Below, piece by piece: positions 25,808 to 52,992 of a stretch of 64,000 nt of DNA. The position numbers and the translations under genes are program-made. Every line of letters starts with the position of its first letter. Within the stretch, counting starts at the first letter, position 1. This stretch comes from an uncultured Thermoleophilia bacterium. GTDB taxonomy: Bacteria; Actinomycetota; Thermoleophilia; UBA2241. The notes beneath the pieces are model-generated. The model did no database searches, was not told the DNA's origin, and saw only the letters and a list, made by a program, of their open reading frames with translations. The stretch lies in NCBI GenBank assembly GCA_903927755.1, contig CAIYOD010000028.1, positions 20,374 through 84,373 on the forward strand, in the 5' to 3' direction.

Positions 25808-27298
25808 CTACTCCGCGTCGGGCCCGGCGCCCTGCAGCGCCGGCTCCCGCGAGGCCGCGAACTCGAGCACGACCACGGTGCGGCCCGGACGCGTGGTGAG
25901 CACGACGCGCGTGCACAGCTGCAGCATGATGGTGAACCCCATGCCCAAGCTGGCGGCCGTCGAGAAGCCGGGGACCAGCGTGGCGCGGGGCAGCGTCCTG
26001 AAGTCGATCCCCGGGCCCTCGTCGCTGATCGCGATCTGCAGGCTGTCCTCCCGCACGAACGCCTGGTACGAGCCTCCGCCGGCGTGCTTGATCGCGTTGT
26101 CGAGTGCCTCGCCCGCGGTGCTCAGCAGGTCGGTGTGGCGGATGCGCCCCGGGAAGCAGCCCTCGGCGGCGCGGACCGCCGCGCGGCGGATCGTGGCGAG
26201 CTGCGCCGGCGCGCCGAAGACGGCCGGCGGCGCGAGCGGCGACCCAAGCTCGTCCGCCAGTTGCTCGTCGGTGAGGAGGATGAGCTTGCCGCCGGTCACC
26301 GCGTCCAGCACGTCGACGTACGCCAGCCGGATCCCCTCTTCCTGCCGGCGCAGCGCCCGCTCGGCCTCGCGCAGGTCGGTGACGTCGGTCGCCGACACCA
26401 CCCAGAGGTCGTCGGCGGCCGGGTACGCCGAGAGCAGTTCGTAGTCCCCCTGCGTCCGCAGGTACACCTCGCAGCGAGCCGGGCGACCCGCCGCAATGGC
26501 GCCGGAGACCACGTCGAAGTAGGCCTGCAGCCGCTCGTCGCTGCCGTCGAACTCGCTGAGGCGCCACCCCACCAGTCGTTCGCTGTGGACCTTGGTCCGC
26601 CGCGCCTGGACGGGGTTGATATCGGCGATGACGAGGTCCTCGACCTCGCCGCCGGAGCTTCGTTCCACACGGAAGACGACGAGGCCCTCGGCGGCGTTGT
26701 CGAAGAGACGCCTGTACCGCTGTTCGCTCTCCAGCAGCAGCGCGTGCTTCTGCTCGTGCTGCAACGCGCTCAGCCCGAGCTCTCCGAGCATGCCGACGAA
26801 GTCGGAGAGGAACCCGATCGTCTTCTGCAGGCGAGCCTGCGTGATCACCGGGACCCGATCGAGCGCCTGCAGATACGCGTCCACGTCGAACCCGAGACGC
26901 CGCGCCCGCTCGGCGAACACCTGCCGGTCCACATCGTCGTCCTCGAAGAAGAACTGCCCGGTGTAGACGTTGGCGACGTGCTCGCCGGCGACGACCAGCG
27001 GGAAGGCGACGTCCCAGAGGCCGTTGCTGCAGCGATACGCGTAGTGCTCGCTCCCGTCCAGACCCTGGACGAGGCGCTGATTGATCAGCAGGTCGCTCTC
27101 GAGGCACCCCTGCAGCGTGTCGGGATGCTCACGATGAAAGCGGGTGCAGATGTCCTGCCAGCCCGTGGCGATCAGGACGTTGCCAGAGAGATCGAGCAGG
27201 GCGAGGGTGACATCAAAGGCCTGGGAGAGACTGTCGCAGAGTCGCTGGACGCGGTCCAGATCGATGAGCTTGGTCAACTCGTACCCGCTCGGCCCCAT
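25808..27298 (-). CDS. PocR-PAS sensory protein with C-terminal GHKL ATPase-like domain (no HisKA H-box seen)
   Basis: ORF 25808..27418 trimmed to ATG 27298. PocR-like region: LDLSGNVLIATGWQDICTRFHREHPDTLQGCLESD...YRCSNGLWDVAFPLVV...VYTGQFFFEDDD. PAS: SEQRYRRLFDNAAEGLVVF. C-terminus GEALDNAIKHAGGG...ISDEGPGI...GMGFTIM resembles anti-sigma-kinase-type ATPases. Ends in TAG. Confidence 0.75.
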   Translation of the reverse strand: MGPSGYELTKLIDLDRVQRLCDSLSQAFDVTLALLDLSGNVLIATGWQDICTRFHREHPDTLQGCLESDLLINQRLVQGLDGSEHYAYRCSNGLWDVAFPLVVAGEHVANVYTGQFFFEDDDVDRQVFAERARRLGFDVDAYLQALDRVPVITQARLQKTIGFLSDFVGMLGELGLSALQHEQKHALLLESEQRYRRLFDNAAEGLVVFRVERSSGGEVEDLVIADINPVQARRTKVHSERLVGWRLSEFDGSDERLQAYFDVVSGAIAAGRPARCEVYLRTQGDYELLSAYPAADDLWVVSATDVTDLREAERALRRQEEGIRLAYVDVLDAVTGGKLILLTDEQLADELGSPLAPPAVFGAPAQLATIRRAAVRAAEGCFPGRIRHTDLLSTAGEALDNAIKHAGGGSYQAFVREDSLQIAISDEGPGIDFRTLPRATLVPGFSTAASLGMGFTIMLQLCTRVVLTTRPGRTVVVLEFAASREPALQGAGPDAE

Positions 27299-27436
27299 CG
27301 GGCGTTCGCCTCCACTTGCGCCGAATCGGCGCACCCCTCGCGGCGCCCCCGCCGCGCGGAACAGTCCTCCCTCTTGGTTACCCGCCAGGCGCGGGCCCCG
27401 AACGCGGCCGGCCCGCACGAGACGCTCAGCCTTCGT

Positions 27437-28864
27437 CTAGCTGCCCGACTGCGCCGTCACCCGGCCCGAATCCACCGCCTCGCGCAGGGCGTCGTAGTCG
27501 CTCTGGTTCTGCTCCGCGTACGCATCCGCGAAGTCGGCGACGGCGCGGTCGAAGATGTCGCCGACGCCCAGGTAGGCGGCAATCGCGATGCGGTCGCCCG
27601 AACGCGCGTGCGCGCGAGCCAGCACCCAGGAGCACATCATCGCGTACGTGTGCCACGCGCCCTCGGTCATCGCCCCGACGTTGAACGACCCCTTGCCGTC
27701 CCAGAGCTGGCGCACGTAGAAGTCGTAGGGTCTGCCGTCGAACCCGGTCACGCTGTACCAGCCGAGCAGGATGTCGCCGACCGCCTGCATCAGCCGCTGG
27801 CCCTCGACCACGCGCCGCCCGGAGTTGCGGAACCGGCTGCGTCCGACGAAGCGCTCCAGGACGGAGGCCTGCGCCTGCTTGGCCTGAAGGAACAGCGGGT
27901 CGCCCTCGTCGCGGCCGAAGAACAGCAGGACCCAGGCGCGGGTGCCGACGCTGCCGACCCCGACGACCTTGCGCGCCATGTCCCGGTAGCGGTAGAGGTC
28001 ATACGCCGCTCGCCGGTCTTTCGGCAGCGTCTCCCGGTAGTTGCGGAGAGCTTCCTCCACGGCATGCGTGAAGCGCGCCCGCTCGTCGCCCGCGAGCAGC
28101 TCTCGGGCGGGCACCAGCAGCGGCGGGTCGCTGCGGAGCCGCGTCTTCCCCTCCACCTCGGCGGTGAGGCGGGAGAGCGCGCGGAGGTCGTGCTTCATCT
28201 CCGCGCGTGACATGTCCTTGGCCATCCGCTTAGCGTCCTTGCCTCCAAGCGACGTGAGGTGGTTCTGGATGAGGTCGGCGTCGAGCCGCGTGTACCAGAG
28301 GTCGATGGCGCGCTTCTCGGCCATCTCCAGCATCGCCTCGCGATAGGCGCGTACGCAGTGCATGACGATCGACCGCCGCGTGGACGCGGCGTAGCCGTGG
28401 TCGCGCGCCGCGATCTCGAAGCTGACCGCGAGGCGCTTGACGTCCCACTCCCACGGCCCGGGCAGCGTCTCGTCGAAGTCGTTGATGTCGAAGACCAGCC
28501 GCCGCTCCGGCGACTGGTACAGGCCGAAGTTCATGAGGTGGCTGTCGCCGCACAGCTGGGCCGTGAGCCCGGAGTCGGGCGTCCCGGCCAGGTCCGTCGC
28601 CATGAGCAGCGCGCCGCCCCGGTAGAAGGTGCCCGGCGAGACGAGCATGCGCGCGTAGCGGAGGGGCACCAGGTCGAGGACGCGATCGGCCCCCTGCTCC
28701 TCGAGCAGGCCGACCGGATCTGGACGATCGGCGGGCGCCTCCCACCGCGCGTGCGCGGAGCGGGGCGCCTGTTTGCGCGCCGCCTTGCCGCGGGCGGCGC
28801 GCTCGGCAGGCGTGAGCTTCTTCGCCTGGGCGATCTCGGGCAGCAGTTCAACCACGGCCCTCAC
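27437..28864 (-). CDS. DUF2252 domain-containing protein
   Basis: 475-aa ORF. PVGLLEEQGADRVLDLVPLRYARMLVSPGTFYRGGALLMATDL...LCGDSHLMNFG...FDINDFDET...WEWDVKRLAVSFEIAAR matches my recollection of the DUF2252 family. Ends in TAG. Confidence 0.8.
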   Translation of the reverse strand: MRAVVELLPEIAQAKKLTPAERAARGKAARKQAPRSAHARWEAPADRPDPVGLLEEQGADRVLDLVPLRYARMLVSPGTFYRGGALLMATDLAGTPDSGLTAQLCGDSHLMNFGLYQSPERRLVFDINDFDETLPGPWEWDVKRLAVSFEIAARDHGYAASTRRSIVMHCVRAYREAMLEMAEKRAIDLWYTRLDADLIQNHLTSLGGKDAKRMAKDMSRAEMKHDLRALSRLTAEVEGKTRLRSDPPLLVPARELLAGDERARFTHAVEEALRNYRETLPKDRRAAYDLYRYRDMARKVVGVGSVGTRAWVLLFFGRDEGDPLFLQAKQAQASVLERFVGRSRFRNSGRRVVEGQRLMQAVGDILLGWYSVTGFDGRPYDFYVRQLWDGKGSFNVGAMTEGAWHTYAMMCSWVLARAHARSGDRIAIAAYLGVGDIFDRAVADFADAYAEQNQSDYDALREAVDSGRVTAQSGS

Positions 28865-28991
28865 CCCTCCAGGACGACGGCGGTACCACTCACGGTGACG
28901 ATCATCGGCTTCCCCCTCTCATGATGCGCCGGGCGGCTGCGCCGAACGATATGCTGCCGCCAAAGAAGACGCAAACACTCCGGCTTTGCCG

Positions 28992-44383: not shown

Positions 44384-44812
44384 TCAGACGTTGTAGACTT
44401 CGCGCCCCAGGATCTTCACCCAGTTGTCCGCCAGCACCTGCTGAGCCTCTTCGGGCTTGTCCACGCCCAGGATGACGATGGCGTTGCCGTGGATCCGGCC
44501 GAGGTGCGGATAGAGATAGTGGACGTTGATGCCCGCGGCCTTCAGCGGCTTCAGCACCGCGCTCACGCTGCCCGGATGATCCGGTATCTCGACGGCGAGC
44601 ACGTCGATCTCCTTGGGGTCGTAGCCACCGCCGGTGAGGATGTTCCTGGCCTTCTCGTGGTCGTCGACGACGAACCGGACGGTGCTGATGTCCGAGGTGT
44701 CCGCCACCGAGATGGCCCTGATGTTCACGCCCTCGCGTCCCAGGAGCTCGCTGATGGTGGCGAAGCTCCCCGGGATGTTGGCGAGACTCACGGACAACTG
44801 CCTGATGGACAT
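44384..44812 (-). CDS. Tandem ACT-domain protein
   Basis: This is the 3' portion of listed ORF 44384..45379. ATG 44812 gives MSIRQLSVSLANIPGSFATISELLGREGVNIRAISVADTSD...VLAVEIPDHPGSVSAVLKPLKAAGINVHYLY, i.e. two ACT repeats. Confidence 0.8.
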   Translation of the reverse strand: MSIRQLSVSLANIPGSFATISELLGREGVNIRAISVADTSDISTVRFVVDDHEKARNILTGGGYDPKEIDVLAVEIPDHPGSVSAVLKPLKAAGINVHYLYPHLGRIHGNAIVILGVDKPEEAQQVLADNWVKILGREVYNV

Positions 44813-44817
44813 GCGCG

Positions 44818-45350
44818 TCAGTCCTTTGTGTAGTCGTGGCCCACGGCGAGGGCTCTCTTGTTGAGGTCCAGGAGCTTCGCTCTGCCTTTGCCGAGGATCT
44901 CGGCGAGATTCTCCACCATGGCGTCGTAGGAGATCATGCTGCTCGCCCTGACCAGAGCCCCGAGCATGATCATGTTGGCCACCTTGATGGAGCCCAGCTG
45001 CTCCGCCAGCTCGCTCGTGGGGACCGCGAGGATCTCGATGTCGCTCCTCGCCGTCTCGGTGTGCACGAGCGAGGAGTTGGCGCACAGAAGCCCTCCCGAC
45101 TGGAGGGCGCCCTGGAACCTGACGAAGGAGGGCTGGTTCATGGCGATGACGACTTCCGGCGACGACGCCACGGGCGAGGCGATCTCCTCGTCGGAGACGG
45201 CGACGGCGCAGTTGGCGGTGCCGCCCCGCACCTCCACGCCGTAGCTGGGCAGGTACGTGACGTACCTGCCTTCGAGCATGGCTGCGGTGGCCAGGGTCGA
45301 TCCCATGGAGAGGACGCCCTGCCCTCCGGATCCCGAGATGATGGCCTTCG

Positions 45351-45357
<7 letters not shown>
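44818..45357 (-). CDS. 2-oxoacid:ferredoxin oxidoreductase, gamma subunit
   Basis: GTG 45357. VLTKAIISGSGGQGVLSMGSTLATAAMLEGRYVTYLPSYGVEVRGGTANCAVAVSDEEI is the canonical gamma-subunit N-terminus. Confidence 0.85.
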
Positions 45358-46087
<730 letters not shown>

Positions 46088-46091
<4 letters not shown>

Positions 46092-47167
46092 GGCTGCTTC
46101 CGATCGCCGTCCGCATGGGCCTGGTAATAGTGTCGCGAGATGATCCTGTAGAGCTCGACGGGCATCGGCACGACGCCTCCGGGCCTTCCGTAGAAATGGA
46201 TGTGTCCCTCGCCCTCGAGCGCGAGTCTCACGTCCTCCACCATCTGGCCGGCGCTGAGCTCGAAGACGAAGAAGTCGGTCACCGACTTCGCCAGCTCCCG
46301 CAGGGCCTTCATGGGGAACGGCCAGAGCGTGATGGGCCGGATCATGCCCACCTTCTTGCCCTCGTCGCGGAGTCGCTTGATGGCGCCCCTGGCGATGCGC
46401 GCGCCGATGCCGTAGGCGACCACGATCATCTCGGCGTCGTCCACCAGATAGGTCTCGTAGCGGACCTCGTCCTGCTCGATGAGCCGGAACTTCCGCTGCA
46501 GCTTCCAGTTCTTCTCCTCCTGGAGTTTGACGTCGAAGATCAGGGAGTAGATCGACTGGGCGGGTCTGCCCTTGGCGCCTGTGAGCGCCCAGCTCTTGTC
46601 GTAGTCCGGCGGGCGCACGAGGCCGTCGAAGTCGACCGGCTCCATCATCTGGCCCAGGATGCCGTCGCCGAGGATGATCACGGGGCTCCGGTACTTGTCC
46701 GCCAGGTCGAAGGCCATCGGTACGACCTCCGTCAGCTCCTGGACGGACGCGGGCGCGAGGACGACGGTCCTGTAGTCGCCGTGACCGCCGCCGCGCGTGG
46801 CCTGGAAGTAGTCCGACTGCGCCCCGGCGATGCTCCCCATGCCGGGGCCGCCCCGCACCATGTTGACGATGACGGCGGGCAGCTCGTCGGCCACCAGGTA
46901 GGAGATGCCTTCCTGCTTGAGGCTCATGCCGGGGCCGCTCGACGACGTCATGGTGCGTGCTCCGGCCGCGGAGGCCCCGAGCACCATGTTGATGGCGGCG
47001 ATCTCGCTCTCCGACTGGATGAAGACACCACCCGCGCCGGGCATACGCCGGGCCATGTACTCCGTGATCTCGTTCTGGGGGGTGATGGGGTACCCGAAGT
47101 AGTGCGTGCACCCGGAGAGGACCGCCGCCTCACCCAGCGCGGCGTTGCCGCTCATCAGCTGTCTCAC
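46088..47167 (-). CDS. 2-oxoacid:ferredoxin oxidoreductase, alpha subunit
   Basis: GTG 47167 overlaps the delta stop (GTGA). VRQLMSGNAALGEAAVLSGCTHYFGYPITPQNEI...QSESEIAAINMVLGASAAGARTMTSSSGPG. An ATG 47155 start is also possible. Confidence 0.9.
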
Positions 47168-47373
47168 GACTTGCTCACCTCGATGGCCACGTCGGGGCAC
47201 ATCAGGGCGCAGTGGCGGCAGGCGCTGCACTCCTTGGAGTCGTCGAAGGCGGCGACGAAATAGCCCTTGAGATTCAGGTCGTCGGAGAGACTGATGCAGT
47301 CCTCCGGACAGAAGTCGATGCAGAGAGCACAGCCCTTGCAGCGCTCCCTGTCGATCTGGATGCTCCCTTTCAC
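47164..47373 (-). CDS. 2-oxoacid:ferredoxin oxidoreductase, delta subunit (2x[4Fe-4S] ferredoxin)
   Basis: GTG 47373 follows AAGGA. Two CxxCxxCxxxCP-type motifs: CKGCALCIDFCP and CSACRHCALMCP. Confidence 0.8.
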   Translation of the reverse strand: MKGSIQIDRERCKGCALCIDFCPEDCISLSDDLNLKGYFVAAFDDSKECSACRHCALMCPDVAIEVSKS

Positions 47374-47601
47374 TGCTGCGTCCTTGCTTCTGGCTCCGTC
47401 TGGCTTGCTGGGACGACGGCCGGTGGATCGTCCGCCGGCAGGCCGGGCCGTCAATGATAAGTGCCCGCAGCCGCGAGCACGACCGACGCCCGGCGCCGGG
47501 GCAGAGGGCGGCCGAACTGCTACTGTCTTCCTGCGTAGGGTCGGAGTCGATCACGAGCCTCGACGACCATGAGAAAGCGAGCTGGAGGGAGGTGCGCCGG
47601 C

Positions 47602-48483
47602 ATGGCGCAGAGCGGCGGTCCACAACTGCGGCTCGAGTTCTGGCGTGGGTTCAGGCAGTCCATGACGGAGCAGAGCGCCATCACCTGCGGGCGCGCGTCG
47701 TCCGAGACCTGGATGCACCACGACGCGCGGCTCAACTGCGGCAGGCTCTTCTCGATGATCCGCACGAGGGACGGAGAGATCGGATCGCAGTTCGCCCTGG
47801 ACGACCTCACCGCGCGGACGGTCTTCACTCTCCTCGGCGATCATCGGCAGGAAGTCGACGAGGCGTTCGGGCGGCCGCTCGCCTGGCGCGTGGTGAGCGA
47901 CAGAATGCATGAGATCGACCTGCGCCGGCCGGCCGACCTCGAACGCCGCGACGACTGGCCGGAGCTCTTCGCGTGGCTGGCGGACAACCTCGACGCCTTC
48001 ACCCGCGCGCTCGTCCCCTTCGTCGGTCGTTCGATCCCCACGCCCCACCAGGGCGACTGGGACGAGACGTCGTTCTTTGCCGCACTCGGCGAGCACAACC
48101 CCGGCGCCGCCGGCCCGGCCCGTGAGCTCCTCGAGTGGGGCCGGGCATCGCTGCCCCACCTGCGCTGGGGCCACGGCAAGCAGTCCGGCTCCTTCACACC
48201 CAGCGTCCTCAGGTCCGGCCTCGAGCACAGCGTGCTCAGCGTGTGGACCGACGGCCTCTTCTGCATCCGCTTCGGAGCGCTCGCCAAGACCCCGGCGTTC
48301 GCACCGGAGTCGATGCGCACCGAGCTGCTGGATCGACTCAACGAAGTCCCGCGCTTCGCCCTTCCGGCAGGAGTCCTCGACAAGTACCCCGGCCTGCCCC
48401 TGGGTCTCCTGGGCGACCCGGCGACCATGCGGGCGTTCCTCACCGCCCTGGACTGGTGCGTCGCGGTGATGAAGCAGCGCTGA
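47602..48483 (+). CDS. DUF4268-like protein with extra C-terminal domain
   Basis: ORF trimmed to ATG 47602. The N-terminal half (LRLEFWRGFRQSM...W...FALDDLTARTVFTLLGDHRQEVDEAFGRPLAWR...) fits my recollection of DUF4268. The C-terminal half was not recognised. Confidence 0.5.
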   Translation: MAQSGGPQLRLEFWRGFRQSMTEQSAITCGRASSETWMHHDARLNCGRLFSMIRTRDGEIGSQFALDDLTARTVFTLLGDHRQEVDEAFGRPLAWRVVSDRMHEIDLRRPADLERRDDWPELFAWLADNLDAFTRALVPFVGRSIPTPHQGDWDETSFFAALGEHNPGAAGPARELLEWGRASLPHLRWGHGKQSGSFTPSVLRSGLEHSVLSVWTDGLFCIRFGALAKTPAFAPESMRTELLDRLNEVPRFALPAGVLDKYPGLPLGLLGDPATMRAFLTALDWCVAVMKQR

Positions 48484-48548
48484 CCCCGGCGTCGCCGCAC
48501 GCGCGGGGCCGCGAGACGCGCCGCCCGGCTCAGCTGTGCCGTCGATAC

Positions 48549-48576
48549 TTGCGTCCTGAGCGGTTTTCTGCATAGT
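48549..48576 (+). promoter_or_regulatory. Candidate sigma-70-type promoter of the methyltransferase cluster
   Basis: TTGCGT (48549..48554), a 16-nt spacer, then CATAGT (48571..48576). It lies about 35 nt upstream of ATG 48612, which has a GGAGGTGG Shine-Dalgarno. Confidence 0.35.
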
Positions 48577-48611
48577 CGCCGCGCGACTCGTACAGCGACC
48601 GGAGGTGGACC

Positions 48612-50087
48612 ATGCGCGAAGCCGCGACGACCAACGACACCAGCCGAGCACCCGAGCAGAGCATCGGGAGCTACTTCACGCGGCTCACCGACGCGCAGTG
48701 CGAGCGGCTGCACGAGGCCACCCTGCAGGTCCTGGAGAGGACCGGGCTCATCATCGACGACCCGGAGGCTCTGGCGCTCCTCGCCGCCGCCGGCGCCGAC
48801 GTGGACGGCACGCGCGTGCGCATCGGCCCGAAGCTGGTGGAGCGCGCCCTCGCGTCCGCGCCGCGTGAGGTGACCCTCTACGACAGGAACGGCGAGCCGC
48901 GCCTCGTGCTCGCCGGCCGCCGGACCTACTACGGCACCGGCAGCGACTGCATGTACTGCTTCGACCACCGCACCGGCGAGCGGCGCCGCGCCGTGCTGCA
49001 GGACGTCGTCGAGGCGACCACCGTGACGGACGCCTGCGGGAACATCGATTTCGTGATGTCGCTGTTCACGCCGAGCGACGTGGACGCGCGCGTCGCCGAC
49101 CGCTACCAGATGGCGACGATGCTCGGCAACACCACCAAGCCCATCGTGTACATCACCATGGGCGACGAGACCGCCAATGCCGACGCCGTCGCCATGGCGG
49201 AGGCGGCGGTCGGCGGCGAGCGGCAGCTGCGCGAGCGGCCTTTCGTGGCCTGCTACAAGAACACACTGTTCCCGCTGGTGCACAACCGCGAGGCGGTGCG
49301 CACGCTGCTCGACCTCGCCGGCAAGGGGCTGCCCTGCATCTTCAGCCCCGTCTCCACGGCCGGCACCGTCGCCCCGATGACCGTCGCCGGCTCTACGGTG
49401 GTCGTCAACGCCGGGGTGCTGGCGGGCCTCGTCATGGCGCAGCTCAAACGCGAGGGCGCTCCGTACATCGCCATCGGCTGGGCCGGCGAGGCCATGGACA
49501 TGCGCACCATGGTCGACGTCTTCGCGTGGCCGGACCACCGCGGCGTCTACTCGTCGCTGCTGCACTGGTACGGGCTGCCGCTGTGGACGCTCGGCGGCGT
49601 GACCGACTCCAAGCTGCCCGACCAGCAGGCGGCGGCCGAGACGGCCCTCACCCTGATGGCCGACGCGGTCATCGGCGGGCACATCAACCACAACATCGGC
49701 TTCATCGAGTCGGCGTTCACCGGCTCGCTGACGCAGGTGGTGCTCGGCGACGACATCGCGGGCTGGATCAAGGCGTTCGTCGCGCCGGTGGACCTGAGCG
49801 ACGAGGCGCTGGGGCTCGACGTGATCGACGAGGTCGGGCCCGGCGGGCTGTTCCTGAAGCACAAGCACACGCGCCGGCACGCGCGCGACCGCTTCCAGCC
49901 CGCGGTCTTCGACCGCAGCACCTTCGAGGACTGGGGCAGGCGCGGCGGCAAGGACGCCACTGAGGTGGCCGCCGAACGCGTGGACGAGCTGCTGGCGACC
50001 CACCGGCCGGAGCCGCTGCCGGCGAGTGCCCAGACAGCGGTCGACGACATCGTGGCGCGCGCCCTGGACCGCGCTCGCCGCGCGTGA
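48612..50087 (+). CDS. MttB-superfamily methyltransferase, non-pyrrolysine member (quaternary amine/other substrate)
   Basis: 491 aa, uninterrupted and colinear with the mttB at 51508..52992 (LHEATLQVLERTG..., ...LGGVTDSKLPDQQAAAETALTLM...). It has Val where the paralogue has TAG. Confidence 0.9.
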   Translation: MREAATTNDTSRAPEQSIGSYFTRLTDAQCERLHEATLQVLERTGLIIDDPEALALLAAAGADVDGTRVRIGPKLVERALASAPREVTLYDRNGEPRLVLAGRRTYYGTGSDCMYCFDHRTGERRRAVLQDVVEATTVTDACGNIDFVMSLFTPSDVDARVADRYQMATMLGNTTKPIVYITMGDETANADAVAMAEAAVGGERQLRERPFVACYKNTLFPLVHNREAVRTLLDLAGKGLPCIFSPVSTAGTVAPMTVAGSTVVVNAGVLAGLVMAQLKREGAPYIAIGWAGEAMDMRTMVDVFAWPDHRGVYSSLLHWYGLPLWTLGGVTDSKLPDQQAAAETALTLMADAVIGGHINHNIGFIESAFTGSLTQVVLGDDIAGWIKAFVAPVDLSDEALGLDVIDEVGPGGLFLKHKHTRRHARDRFQPAVFDRSTFEDWGRRGGKDATEVAAERVDELLATHRPEPLPASAQTAVDDIVARALDRARRA

Positions 50088-50101
50088 GAGGAGGAGGCGA
50101 C

Positions 50102-51496
50102 ATGACGACGGAAGAGCGGATCCCGACGCGGCTCGGAGACGGCTCCCTCCTCACCCTGACCCGGAGTCAGATGCAGGCGGACATCGAAGCCGGCGTCGAG
50201 GCGGCCGTGAAACGCGCCCACGTCCCGCCGCTGACGGCCGCGGAGGCGGACCACCTGCTCGACATCTGCGCCTCCCGCGCCAGGTTCAGCAGCGTCGACC
50301 TGGGGACGGAGGTTGTCCTCAGCATCGACGGCACCGGTGGCCAGCTCGTCGCCGGCCGCCAGGGCGACCTGCTGACGTTCGAGCAGTACCTGGGGGCCGA
50401 CATCGTCGAGCTCTACCACATGGACTACTCGTTCAAGGCAGTGAAGACGGTGCTGCCGTTCGAGCGTCAGAGTCTCAAGAACGCGCAGCAGGCGCTCACC
50501 GTGCCGGTGCAGTACGGCGCCATGCCGGACCTGGGGCGCTACTCCCGGCCGGACGGTCCTATCGCGAACTGGTCGGAACTGCTGCCTCTGGGGCGCATCG
50601 CCGAGGCGCGCGCGGCGCAGGAGGAGGCGGCGGAGATGGCCGCGCACGACATCACCTTCGTGGCCGAGGGCGTGTGGGAGGCGGGGGCCGACGGCATCGA
50701 CCTGGACACGTCGGGCGCGGCCGGCGACGCAGACCTGCTGGCCGCGCTCACGGCGACCCGGGAGATCCGCGGTCGCTGCCCCGACATGGGGATCGAGATG
50801 GGCATGGCGAGCGAGATGGTCCTCGGGATGCACGGCGAGCTGGAGTGGCAGGGCGCCCGGCTTGCCGGCCTCTGGCCGCACCAGCAGGTGAAGCTGGCCG
50901 CCGCGGCGGGCGCCACGGTGTTCGGGCCCGCCGTCAATGTGAACTCGACGAAGTCGCTGCCCTGGAACCTGGCGCGCACGCTGACGCTGTGCAAGCCGTG
51001 CTGCGAGGAGTCGCAGATCCCCGTGCACATGAACGTCGGGATGGGCGTGGGCGGCGTGCCGATGGCCGTCCGGGCGCCGGTCGACGCGGTCTCCCGCGCC
51101 GCGCGCGCCTGCGTCGACATCCTGAAGGTGGACGGGTTGTAGGTGGGCGCCGGCGATCCGCTCGGGATGAGCGCGACGCACGCCAACGCCGCGGGCATGG
51201 GCGGGATGCGAGCCGCCGGAGATCTGGTGGCTCGCCTGCAGATGACCCGGGGCATGAGGCTCCCCGAAGCGAAGCGCTACGTGGCCGACAAGCTGGGCGT
51301 CGGTCCGTCGGACCTCTCGGACGCTCCGACGATGCACGAGGTGAGGGGCGAGCTGGGGCTCGGGCGGATCTGCTACGGGGGCGCTGCCCTCTACCCCGAC
51401 CAGCCGAGCGCGATGGAGGCCAAGTTCCGCATCGCCGAGGTGCTCGGCATCCCCGTGAACTGCGTCGAGCGGTTCCGCACGCACGCGAGGATCTGA
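50102..51496 (+). CDS. mtbB: Dimethylamine:corrinoid methyltransferase MtbB with in-frame TAG (51140..51142) at the pyrrolysine position
   Basis: ORFs 50084..51142 and 51143..51496 are in the same frame, separated only by TAG. ATG 50102 follows GAGGAGGAGG. The joined 464-codon product is colinear with archaeal MtbB. ...MGMGVGGVPM...[46 protein letters not shown] matches the recalled Methanosarcina MtbB1 motif VDGI-Pyl-IGVGDPLGM...[12 protein letters not shown]. Confidence 0.9.
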
Positions 51497-51507
51497 GGGG
51501 AGCAGGG

Positions 51508-52992
51508 ATGGACGACGTACGTGACCAGCGCCTGGCCGGCGTCCCTCAGGTCCGCCTCGGCGTGCTGAGTGAGCGGGACCTGGACGACCTCCACGAGGCG
51601 ACCCTGCGGGTGCTGGAGCAGACCGGGGTCTGGGTCGAGGACGCCGAGGCCCTCGACGTGTACGCCGACGCCGGGTGCGCGGTGGACCGGGACGCGCGGT
51701 CCGTCCGCATCCCGCCAGGCGTCGTGGATGCGGCGATCGCCTCGGCCCCGGCGGAGTGGGTCCAGTGCGGCCGCGACCCCGCTCGCGACGTGCTCCTCGG
51801 CGGCGACCGGGTGACCTTCACCAACTTCTGCGAGGGCCTCTTCATGATCGACGCTCGCAGCGGCGCGCGCCGGCCGGCGACCACGCAGGACGTGGAGGAC
51901 ACGGCGCGCCTCTCCGACCGCCTCGGGATGATCGACTCCTACATGGTCGCCGTCACCGCGTCGGACGCGCCCACGGCCACCGCCTCCCTGCACGGACTGC
52001 GCGCGGCCTTCCGCGGCACGAGCAAGCACATCGTCGCCGGCGCGGCCAACGCGTTCGAGAGCGAGGCGAGCATCGACATGGCCGCGGCCATCGTCGGCGG
52101 GCGAGACCGTCTACGCGAGCGCCCGATCATCGAGTTCGGCGGCTGCCCCGTCAGCCCGCTGCGGCTGCCCCGCGAGCTGACCGAGGTGGCCATCACGGCG
52201 GCGCGCAACGGCATCCCGTTCGGCGCCTGCTCCATGGTCATGGCGGGCGCGTCGGCCCCGGTCACCCTGGCCGGCGCGCTGGTCACCCACAACGTGGAGG
52301 TCCTGGCGACCCTCGTCCTCGTCCAGTCGGTGGAACGAGGGTCGCCGTTCCGCGCCTCGAGCTCGAGCACCGGCATGGACCTGCGGGTCGGTACGTGCCC
52401 CGTCGGGTCGCCCGAGTGCGCCATGCTCAACGTCGGCGTCGCGCAGCTGGCGCGGCGGTACAACCTGCCCAGCCTCGTCGCCGGGTTGTAGGCGGACTCC
52501 AAGACGTGTGACGCCCAGGCCGGTCACGAGAAGACGCTCACCGGAGTGATGACTGCGTTGGCAGGCGCCAACCAGATCTACGGAGCGGGCATGGTCGAGT
52601 CGGGCGTCACGTTCGATCTGGGTCAGCTGGTCGTGGACGACGAGATCGCGCGCATGATCCGCCACATCCTGGAGGGGATCCCCGTCAACGAGGATACGCT
52701 GCTGCTCGGGGACATCCAGGACGTCGGCTGGTCCGGGGAGTTCATGTCCCGCAAGAGCACGCTGCACGGCATGCGAGCCATGTCGGCCCCGCGGATCTTC
52801 GACCGCGGGGTGTACGAGGTGTGGGACGCCGCGGGGAGAGTGGACCTGGCGCGGCGCGCGCGAGACAAAGCGTTGGCGCTGCTCGACGAGGACGGCGGCT
52901 GCGACCTGCCGCCCGACGTCTCCGCCGAGCTCGACGCCATCGTCGCGCGCGCGGACCGCGCCGTCACACCGCCGGCTGCACCAGATGGATGA
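51508..52992 (+). CDS. mttB: Trimethylamine:corrinoid methyltransferase MttB with in-frame TAG (52489..52491) at the pyrrolysine position
   Basis: ATG 51508 follows GAGGGGAG. The frame of the tail of ORF 50026..52491 continues after TAG into ORF 52546..52992. The junction reads ...[49 protein letters not shown], total 494 codons. This matches the G-L-Pyl-x-D-S-K context recalled for Pyl-type MttB. Confidence 0.9.

Follow-up and report, generated by a model that had tools for sequence, protein, structure and literature searches.

Can a TAG in the middle of a methyltransferase gene be read as an amino acid in a bacterium that also ends many of its genes with TAG? The question is raised by mttB, a gene in a 64-kb window (the whole 64,000-nucleotide stretch analyzed here, from contig CAIYOD010000028.1 of an uncultured Thermoleophilia bacterium, phylum Actinomycetota), in which the reading frame of a trimethylamine:corrinoid methyltransferase is interrupted by a single TAG. 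The pyrrolysine (Pyl)-containing methyltransferases MttB and MtbB are textbook enzymes in Methanosarcina and are also known in Bacillota and Deltaproteobacteria. Based on homology, we consider it very probable that the window gene is an intact trimethylamine methyltransferase gene whose one in-frame TAG is the pyrrolysine codon. With equally high confidence, we take it to be a functional Pyl-encoding mttB in an uncultured soil member of the Thermoleophilia. From sequence comparison, we infer that Pyl is inserted in the source organism and that its MttB is enzymatically active.

The mttB frame has one internal stop, at the pyrrolysine column

Retranslation returned exactly the frame that the initial annotation had described, with 327 residues from ATG 51508, a TAG at 52489-52491, 166 further residues, and a TGA at 52990-52992. 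This amounts to 494 codons (sense or TAG) with a single internal stop and no frameshift, and the junction sequence around the TAG was also as had been given. Profile searches were carried out on read-through proteins with a placeholder residue at the TAG. The mttB product matched Pfam MTTB (PF06253) in one stretch spanning the TAG (311.9 bits, residues 17-483), and it scored 585.7 bits (residues 16-483) against a cut-off of 525 with TIGR02369, the NCBIfam equivalog model for [trimethylamine--corrinoid protein] Co-methyltransferase. The best structure match was MttB of Methanosarcina barkeri (PDB 7XCL/7XCM; E ~1e-91, residues 15-486), and codon 328 aligned exactly with residue X334, the pyrrolysine, of 7XCL. 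The Rfam model PYLIS_3 placed its position 1 exactly on the same TAG. The TAG column and the Pyl column thus coincide, as the initial annotation had proposed.

The homology to M. barkeri MttB (Pyl334; 7XCL, 7XCM, 7XCN) extends over the full length, and the two proteins have in common the motifs PS-VAG-x-Pyl-xD[SA]K-xDxQAGHEKT and ALAGAN-IYGAGM. The window gene differs in coming from a bacterial host of 70% guanine-plus-cytosine (GC) content, in having Leu rather than Ser before the Pyl position, and in having no adjoining mttC or mttP gene. The context G-L-Pyl-x-D-S-K, which the initial annotation had given for Pyl-type trimethylamine methyltransferases, is that of the Thermoleophilia, whereas M. 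barkeri has G-S-Pyl-S-D-A-K; in other bacterial lineages, the residue before Pyl is Ala, Gly, or Gln.

A second gene with its sole internal stop at a Pyl position had also been claimed, and we confirmed it as the adjacent mtbB, predicted to encode a dimethylamine:corrinoid methyltransferase, in which TAG 51140-51142 is the only internal stop. This gene scored 550 bits with Pfam Dimeth_Pyl and 424.1 bits with the equivalog model TIGR02368 (cut-off 369.1), it matched PYLIS_2 at 51140-51239 (57.8 bits) with the model starting on the mtbB TAG, and its TAG is kept in 15 of 15 Thermoleophilia orthologs. In both PYLIS matches, several of the pairs that the models require are non-canonical in the window sequence, which thus lends no support to a PYLIS RNA structure. 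We take the matches as evidence of homology between the two TAGs and known Pyl codons rather than of an RNA element, and they would mainly reflect conserved coding sequence.

The third methyltransferase gene of the window, an MttB-superfamily paralog at 48612-50087, had been described as uninterrupted and as carrying Val at the corresponding site, and retranslation and BLASTP bore out both points: Val330 (GTG) aligned with X328 (the TAG codon) of mttB at 33% overall identity. The paralog reached only 362 bits with TIGR02369, under the cut-off of 525. An exact-sequence database look-up of the paralog returned no match, probably owing to another called start. It is of the type of the non-Pyl MttB superfamily, which includes the glycine betaine methyltransferase MtgB (PDB 2QNE/9YCE) and belongs to the same fold family. 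In these non-Pyl members, a sense codon occupies the Pyl column and the substrates are quaternary amines, whereas the window mttB has TAG there and scores above the Pyl-type cut-off. By analogy with the characterized non-Pyl members, for which quaternary amine substrates are established (cited in PMC10805028), the substrate of the paralog is probably a quaternary amine.

The TAG and the frame behind it are conserved

The scan for relatives covered one genome per GTDB species, and codon 328 was mapped onto every tblastn match. It returned 62 loci, all in metagenome-assembled genomes (MAGs) labeled Thermoleophilia, Actinomycetes, Actinomycetota, or Coriobacteriaceae, with the Thermoleophilia in large majority. 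A TAG-type mttB was present in all 62, representing about 50 species-level MAGs. Among the matches of at least 43% identity, the codon 328 column held TAG in 67 of 67 and never TAA, TGA, or a sense codon. The approximately 190 paralog matches below 36% identity had sense codons at this column (Ala, His, Ser, Val, Arg, and others), with one alignment gap. The closest MAG was MFD00905.bin.2.53 (CAVTPJ01; 91% amino acid identity), which holds three TAG-type mttB genes (L001, L020, and L021). In terms of sequence identity, the window mttB appears to belong to a divergent sub-clade, approximately 50-55% identical to the main Thermoleophilia clade.

In the orthologs, the frame after the TAG has a median open length of 161 codons, and TGA ends it in 58 of the 64 complete cases, the few exceptions being frameshifted long-read assemblies. 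The 18-19 codons directly after the TAG, ahead of a possible restart at GTG 52546, are the most conserved stretch of MttB, in which D330, D335, Q337, H340, E341, K342, T343, and T345 show 100% conservation. The ratio of nonsynonymous to synonymous substitution rates (dN/dS) for the window against L001 was 0.21 upstream of the TAG and 0.35 downstream of it, and the downstream part of mttB is under purifying selection. Disabling mutations in orthologs, which the initial annotation had named among the evidence that would speak against it, have not accumulated in this open and constrained frame.

Beside the TAG-type genes, we observed a group of full-length MttB proteins (P0005, P0006, P0010, P0017, and P0025), approximately 51% identical to the window gene, in which the Pyl column holds Leu (CTC) or Val but DAQ[AS]GHEKT is retained. 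In L073 (3648-5135), a TAG-type mttB (context CAG-TAG-GGC) and a corrinoid gene are followed in tandem by the gene for one such MttB. This group may represent Pyl-clade enzymes in which Pyl has been replaced.

A complete pyrrolysine system is present in the lineage

The Pyl machinery was searched for by tblastn with PylRS of M. mazei, PylSc of Desulfitobacterium hafniense, and the Thermoleophilia PylSc, PylSn, PylB, PylC, PylD, and corrinoid protein as queries; the D. hafniense PylSc query was checked residue by residue against PDB 3DSQ. A word-indexed search with this PylSc returned only Bacillota among the best 120 matches. An exhaustive search of 50%-identity representatives with the same query gave 47 clusters below E = 1e-30, among them P0242, a Lys-free and Arg/Ala-rich protein typical of high-GC genomes, which as a query recovered more than 120 PylSc clusters (90% identity). 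Some of these bear the NCBI name "pyrrolysine--tRNA(Pyl) ligase large subunit", among them P0413 (Thermoleophilia bacterium) and P0507 (Actinobacteria bacterium). The former is encoded on JBAZPK010000196 (L071) and the latter on JAAZAR010000071 (L072), and both MAGs also hold a TAG-type mttB (L048 in JBAZPK01 and L049 in JAAZAR01).

On the JAAZAR01 contig and on four Logan contigs of 68% GC, the gene next after pylSc encodes 109 residues and lies on the opposite strand, with pylD, pylC, and pylB a few kb from pylSc. A tRNA with anticodon CUA, identified as tRNA-Pyl by ARAGORN, was found on the JAAZAR01 contig and on both Logan contigs scanned, near-identical in sequence across contigs; the tRNA-Pyl(CUA) of the source genome would be expected to be close to GGGGGGTCGATCGGAAGGATCAGCGYGGGCTCTAAACCCACG... 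Given that the L072 components all pass their NCBIfam cut-offs (Table 1) and are accompanied by tRNA-Pyl(CUA), a complete Pyl system is present in the lineage, unlinked to the methyltransferase genes. The cassette is set among housekeeping genes (GluRS, CysRS, TldD/PmbA, and amidase; L066 8919-15581, L072 8925-17961, and L065 10001-12320), with pylSc and pylSn on opposite strands and pylB-C-D-pylT a few kb off.

The Thermoleophilia thus have, like the D. hafniense-type systems of Bacillota and Deltaproteobacteria (PylSc, PDB 3DSQ/2ZNI), a split PylSc and PylSn together with pylBCD and pylT, and their PylSc is approximately 50% identical to that of D. hafniense and passes TIGR02367. Unlike those systems, the Thermoleophilia cassette stands among housekeeping genes and has pylSc and pylSn on opposite strands.

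Several minor observations were made at these loci. In L072, the corrinoid protein gene adjoins pylSc. In L065 (13703-19883), the position of pylBCD is taken by an RVT_1 reverse-transcriptase gene, a DUF4268 gene, and approximately 4.5 kb without called genes; this locus has only 56.5% GC, and a DUF4268 gene also stands at the head of the mttB module of the window. Weak tblastn matches of D. hafniense PylSc antisense to mttB near the TAG (residues 137-200, E ~3e-4, 36% identity; L013, L020, L021, L031, and others) were set aside as probable compositional noise.

Pyrrolysine insertion weighed against other explanations

In our proposed model, UAG 328 would be read by Pyl-tRNA(CUA), yielding a full-length trimethylamine:corrinoid methyltransferase of 494 residues. 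PylB, PylC, and PylD would synthesize the pyrrolysine, and the split PylSc/PylSn enzyme would load it onto the tRNA. The pyl genes of the source organism would be placed elsewhere in its genome, outside the mttB region. By homology with M. barkeri MttB, Pyl328 would be the catalytic residue, binding trimethylamine and activating it so that its methyl group passes to the Co(I) corrinoid protein. MtbB would then take the dimethylamine produced by MttB, with its Pyl doing the same job for this substrate. In bacterial methylamine users, the methyl acceptor pathway is likely that of tetrahydrofolate rather than coenzyme M, and the same would be expected for the window gene.

The following observations weigh against this model. 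Neither pylT, pylS, nor pylBCD was detected in the 64-kb window by ARAGORN, Rfam, or tblastn, and in none of the 62 related loci was Pyl machinery found at a distance of up to 10 kb from mttB; it is therefore through other genomes in the class that the gene is linked to such machinery. The Thermoleophilia corrinoid-protein query detected no corrinoid protein gene in the 64-kb window or in L001. Such a gene lies directly downstream of mttB in about 35 other Thermoleophilia loci (for example, L002, L009, L011, and L013), an arrangement with an adjacent MttC gene that is usual rather than defining, and the partner may be encoded elsewhere. In addition, TAG is the stop codon of 11 of the 37 confidently called genes of the window, and unregulated suppression would be costly.

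One alternative, which we regard as very unlikely, is that mttB and mtbB are relics, intact in sequence in a genome from which the Pyl cassette was lost or in which it was never present, so that only an inactive 327-residue fragment is made. This would agree with a window lacking any Pyl gene or tRNA-Pyl, and with a 5.4-kb module whose flanks are unrelated between the window and L001 and which may move between genomes, possibly into Pyl-less hosts. A relic is, however, difficult to reconcile with purifying selection after the TAG (omega of 0.35 between the window and L001) and with an mttB that has no extra stops or frameshifts. Three clusters of 87-92% identity and a fourth of 73% are also present in the protein database, and each ends at residue 313-327, that is, at the TAG position, so that the truncation point is shared among relatives; of approximately 80 further matches with 50-57% identity, most have a length of 327 residues. 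The nearest MAG, moreover, has two more mttB genes of the TAG type, with a corrinoid gene behind each of them.

Hardly plausible, in our judgment, is that a near-cognate tRNA or an ordinary suppressor tRNA inserts one of the standard amino acids at the UAG, or that the gene yields two assembling polypeptides, residues 1-327 and a second piece restarting at GTG 52546. Gene callers do report, after the TAG, an MTTB fragment of its own with a length of 141-147 residues, but a restart at this GTG would leave untranslated the 18 codons between, which are the most conserved ones and align with the active-site region of M. barkeri MttB. The orthologs, for their part, never have a sense codon at the Pyl column, which argues that no standard residue replaces Pyl, and a dedicated tRNA-Pyl(CUA) is present in the lineage.

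A recent nonsense mutation, a sequencing error, or an assembly artifact, for which nothing more than the bare presence of a stop codon speaks, can practically be dismissed, as had been judged initially, given a TAG conserved in 67 genes down to 43% identity, a neighboring mtbB with a TAG at its own Pyl column, and the exact 327-residue product on contigs from several independent ENA assemblies of different samples, the two of which with DNA (L063 and L064) are identical to the window through the TAG.

UAG as stop and probable sense codon, and its sequence context

Returning to insertion of Pyl at this codon, we considered how the UAG could be decoded. In the related loci, TAG ends 221 of 709 genes, including about 80 Pyl-gene TAGs, which amounts to approximately 22-31% according to whether those are counted, and TAA is almost absent as a stop both there and in the window. 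Since TAG is still a common stop in the lineage, decoding is ambiguous. Pyl-tRNA would compete with release factor 1 at UAG, and the outcome would probably be set by the level of pyl expression and possibly by the local context GGG-UUG-UAG-G. In Methanosarcina acetivorans, ambiguous UAG decoding was demonstrated by experiment, pyl expression is apparently matched to need, and a mechanism dedicated to suppression is not known; how Pyl-decoding organisms handle ambiguous UAG was stated to be unresolved (PMC12626013). For the bacterium studied here, we infer that UAG decoding is regulated.

The ten bases common to both Pyl codons of the window are GGGTTGTAGG. We analyzed this context in 55 intact mttB orthologs (loci L001-L062; median pairwise identity 69%, minimum 46%). 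TTG precedes the TAG in 52 of the 52 orthologs that have Leu there, although TTG makes up only 6.3% of the 2606 Leu codons of the set, and synonymous sites near TTG-TAG vary freely. Among 22 conserved Leu columns, only codons 327 and 351 are dominated by TTG. GGG occupies position -2 in 48 of the 55 orthologs, against 18% overall usage, and the G after the TAG is confounded with the following amino acid. In the mtbB orthologs, TTG precedes the TAG in 14 of 15. The invariant use of a rare synonymous TTG is a clean signal, suggesting that selection acts on the mRNA or else on the tRNA in the P site beside the UAG. As a tentative and rather doubtful proposal, GGG-UUG-UAG-G might be a selected, lineage-specific cis signal in the two unrelated gene families mttB and mtbB that shifts the balance between Pyl-tRNA and release factor 1 toward Pyl, in a lineage where TAG ends roughly a quarter of genes.

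The second TTG-dominated column, codon 351 (TTG in 53 of the 55 orthologs), lies within a small hairpin downstream of the TAG (Table 1), in which the first U of this codon pairs with A. RNAalifold on 47 distinct ortholog sequences recovered the stem, with near-invariant pairs that provide no proof by covariation and are inseparable from coding constraint. Long-range isolated pairs in the RNAalifold output were discarded.

Relation to reported pyrrolysine systems

Pyl-type mttB and mtbB in the same phylum were reported in 2023 by Ellenbogen et al. (PMC10805028), who describe Pyl-encoding mttB and mtbB expressed by Actinobacteriota MAGs from Stordalen Mire. These genes present the same phenomenon, being truncated at the amber codon. 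In that paper, Pyl is deduced from truncation only and pylS does not appear in the main text, and its searched passages contain no analysis of a pyl cassette or of the Pyl column. The window gene differs from the Stordalen Mire genes in its divergent sub-clade, in its association with mtbB and a non-Pyl paralog, and in lacking a corrinoid gene beside it. One locus of our scan (L025, palsa_647, PKYG01) carries a palsa-type sample name and may come from the same mire. Among 81 bacterial genomes encoding PylRS, Guo et al. (2022; PMC9630628) listed two Actinobacteria, and our literature search found no paper devoted to pyrrolysine in Thermoleophilia, the single one containing both words using each of them once. 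The codon context is the only element described here that might be new.

With 62 loci, more than 120 PylSc clusters, and a complete cassette in a related MAG, Pyl decoding appears to be widespread in soil and peat Thermoleophilia. Given that the main PylRS survey had only two Actinobacteria, the part that abundant soil actinobacteria play in the demethylation of trimethylamine and dimethylamine may be underestimated. Genuine Pyl genes of these genomes are cut in two by gene callers, and the products of mttB and mtbB should each be annotated as one Pyl-containing protein. A lineage with TAG as a frequent stop also offers a useful natural case for the study of ambiguous UAG decoding.

Operon and genomic neighborhood

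Table 1. Features of the mttB region of the 64-kb window and components of the pyl locus of a related MAG (L072).
Feature	Source	Position	Strand	Evidence or remark
mttB, putative Pyl-type trimethylamine:corrinoid methyltransferase	window	51508..52992	+	494 codons including UAG; Pfam MTTB, TIGR02369, 7XCL/7XCM
TAG, predicted pyrrolysine codon (codon 328)	window	52489..52491	+	aligned with X334 of PDB 7XCL; TAG in 67/67 relatives
Context GGG-TTG-TAG-G at the predicted Pyl codon	window	52483..52492	+	same ten bases at mtbB TAG (51134-51143)
Match to Rfam PYLIS_3 (mttB; RF02510)	window	52489..52588	+	71.9 bits vs gathering score 38; model positions 1-100
Hairpin G-UUGGC-AGGC-GCCAA-C	window	52557..52572	+	66 nt after TAG; contains rare TTG codon 351
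Shine-Dalgarno-like GGGGAG	window	51497..51502	+	5 nt before mttB ATG; read from sequence
mtbB, putative Pyl-type dimethylamine:corrinoid methyltransferase	window	50102..51496	+	TAG 51140-51142 (codon 347); Dimeth_Pyl, TIGR02368, PYLIS_2
Non-Pyl MttB-superfamily paralog	window	48612..50087	+	Val (GTG, codon 330) at Pyl column; Pfam MTTB 283.5 bits
DUF4268 gene, head of conserved 5.4-kb module	window	47569..48483	+	Pfam DUF4268
PylSc	L072			320 bits vs NCBIfam cut-off 178
PylSn	L072			127 bits vs NCBIfam cut-off 51
PylD	L072			212 bits vs NCBIfam cut-off 150
PylC	L072			337 bits vs NCBIfam cut-off 248
PylB	L072			444 bits vs NCBIfam cut-off 348
Pyl-type corrinoid protein	L072			225 bits vs NCBIfam cut-off 215

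The three methyltransferase genes follow one another in the order paralog, mtbB, mttB, with gaps of 14 and 11 nt, and form a tight operon in which mttB is last. Because mtbB stops at TGA 51494-51496 and only 11 nt separate the two genes, mtbB and mttB look translationally linked. On two JGI contigs of close relatives, the genes are arranged in this same order, and the gene caller has broken each of the two Pyl genes in two.

Comparison with L001 revealed 90.4% DNA similarity over a 5.4-kb module (window 47601-52961, L001 6106-11454) that comprises only the DUF4268 gene and the three methyltransferase genes, the flanks being unrelated; a tblastx comparison of the two was uninformative owing to their GC-rich composition. 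The flanks differ on the JGI contigs too. The module may therefore be mobile, or the region may have been rearranged.

Downstream of mttB lie two genes without Pfam matches and a gene for an extracytoplasmic function (ECF) sigma factor. Given that the window has a GC content of approximately 70%, long spurious open reading frames are common, and genes were therefore picked by their third-position GC content. A DUF2252 gene (25808-28918, minus strand) ends in a TAG that is in frame with the next open reading frame, for a PocR-sensor histidine kinase. A read-through fusion of the two was rejected because a plausible ATG comes only after about 46 non-conserved codons beyond the TAG, and the arrangement looks like chance.

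Upstream of the operon and on the opposite strand, we observed a 2-oxoacid:ferredoxin oxidoreductase cluster (44400-47650, minus strand) that encodes alpha, beta, and gamma subunits together with an ACT-domain protein. Its third-position GC content is below that of the rest of the window, and its smaller genes were missed by the third-position GC filter.

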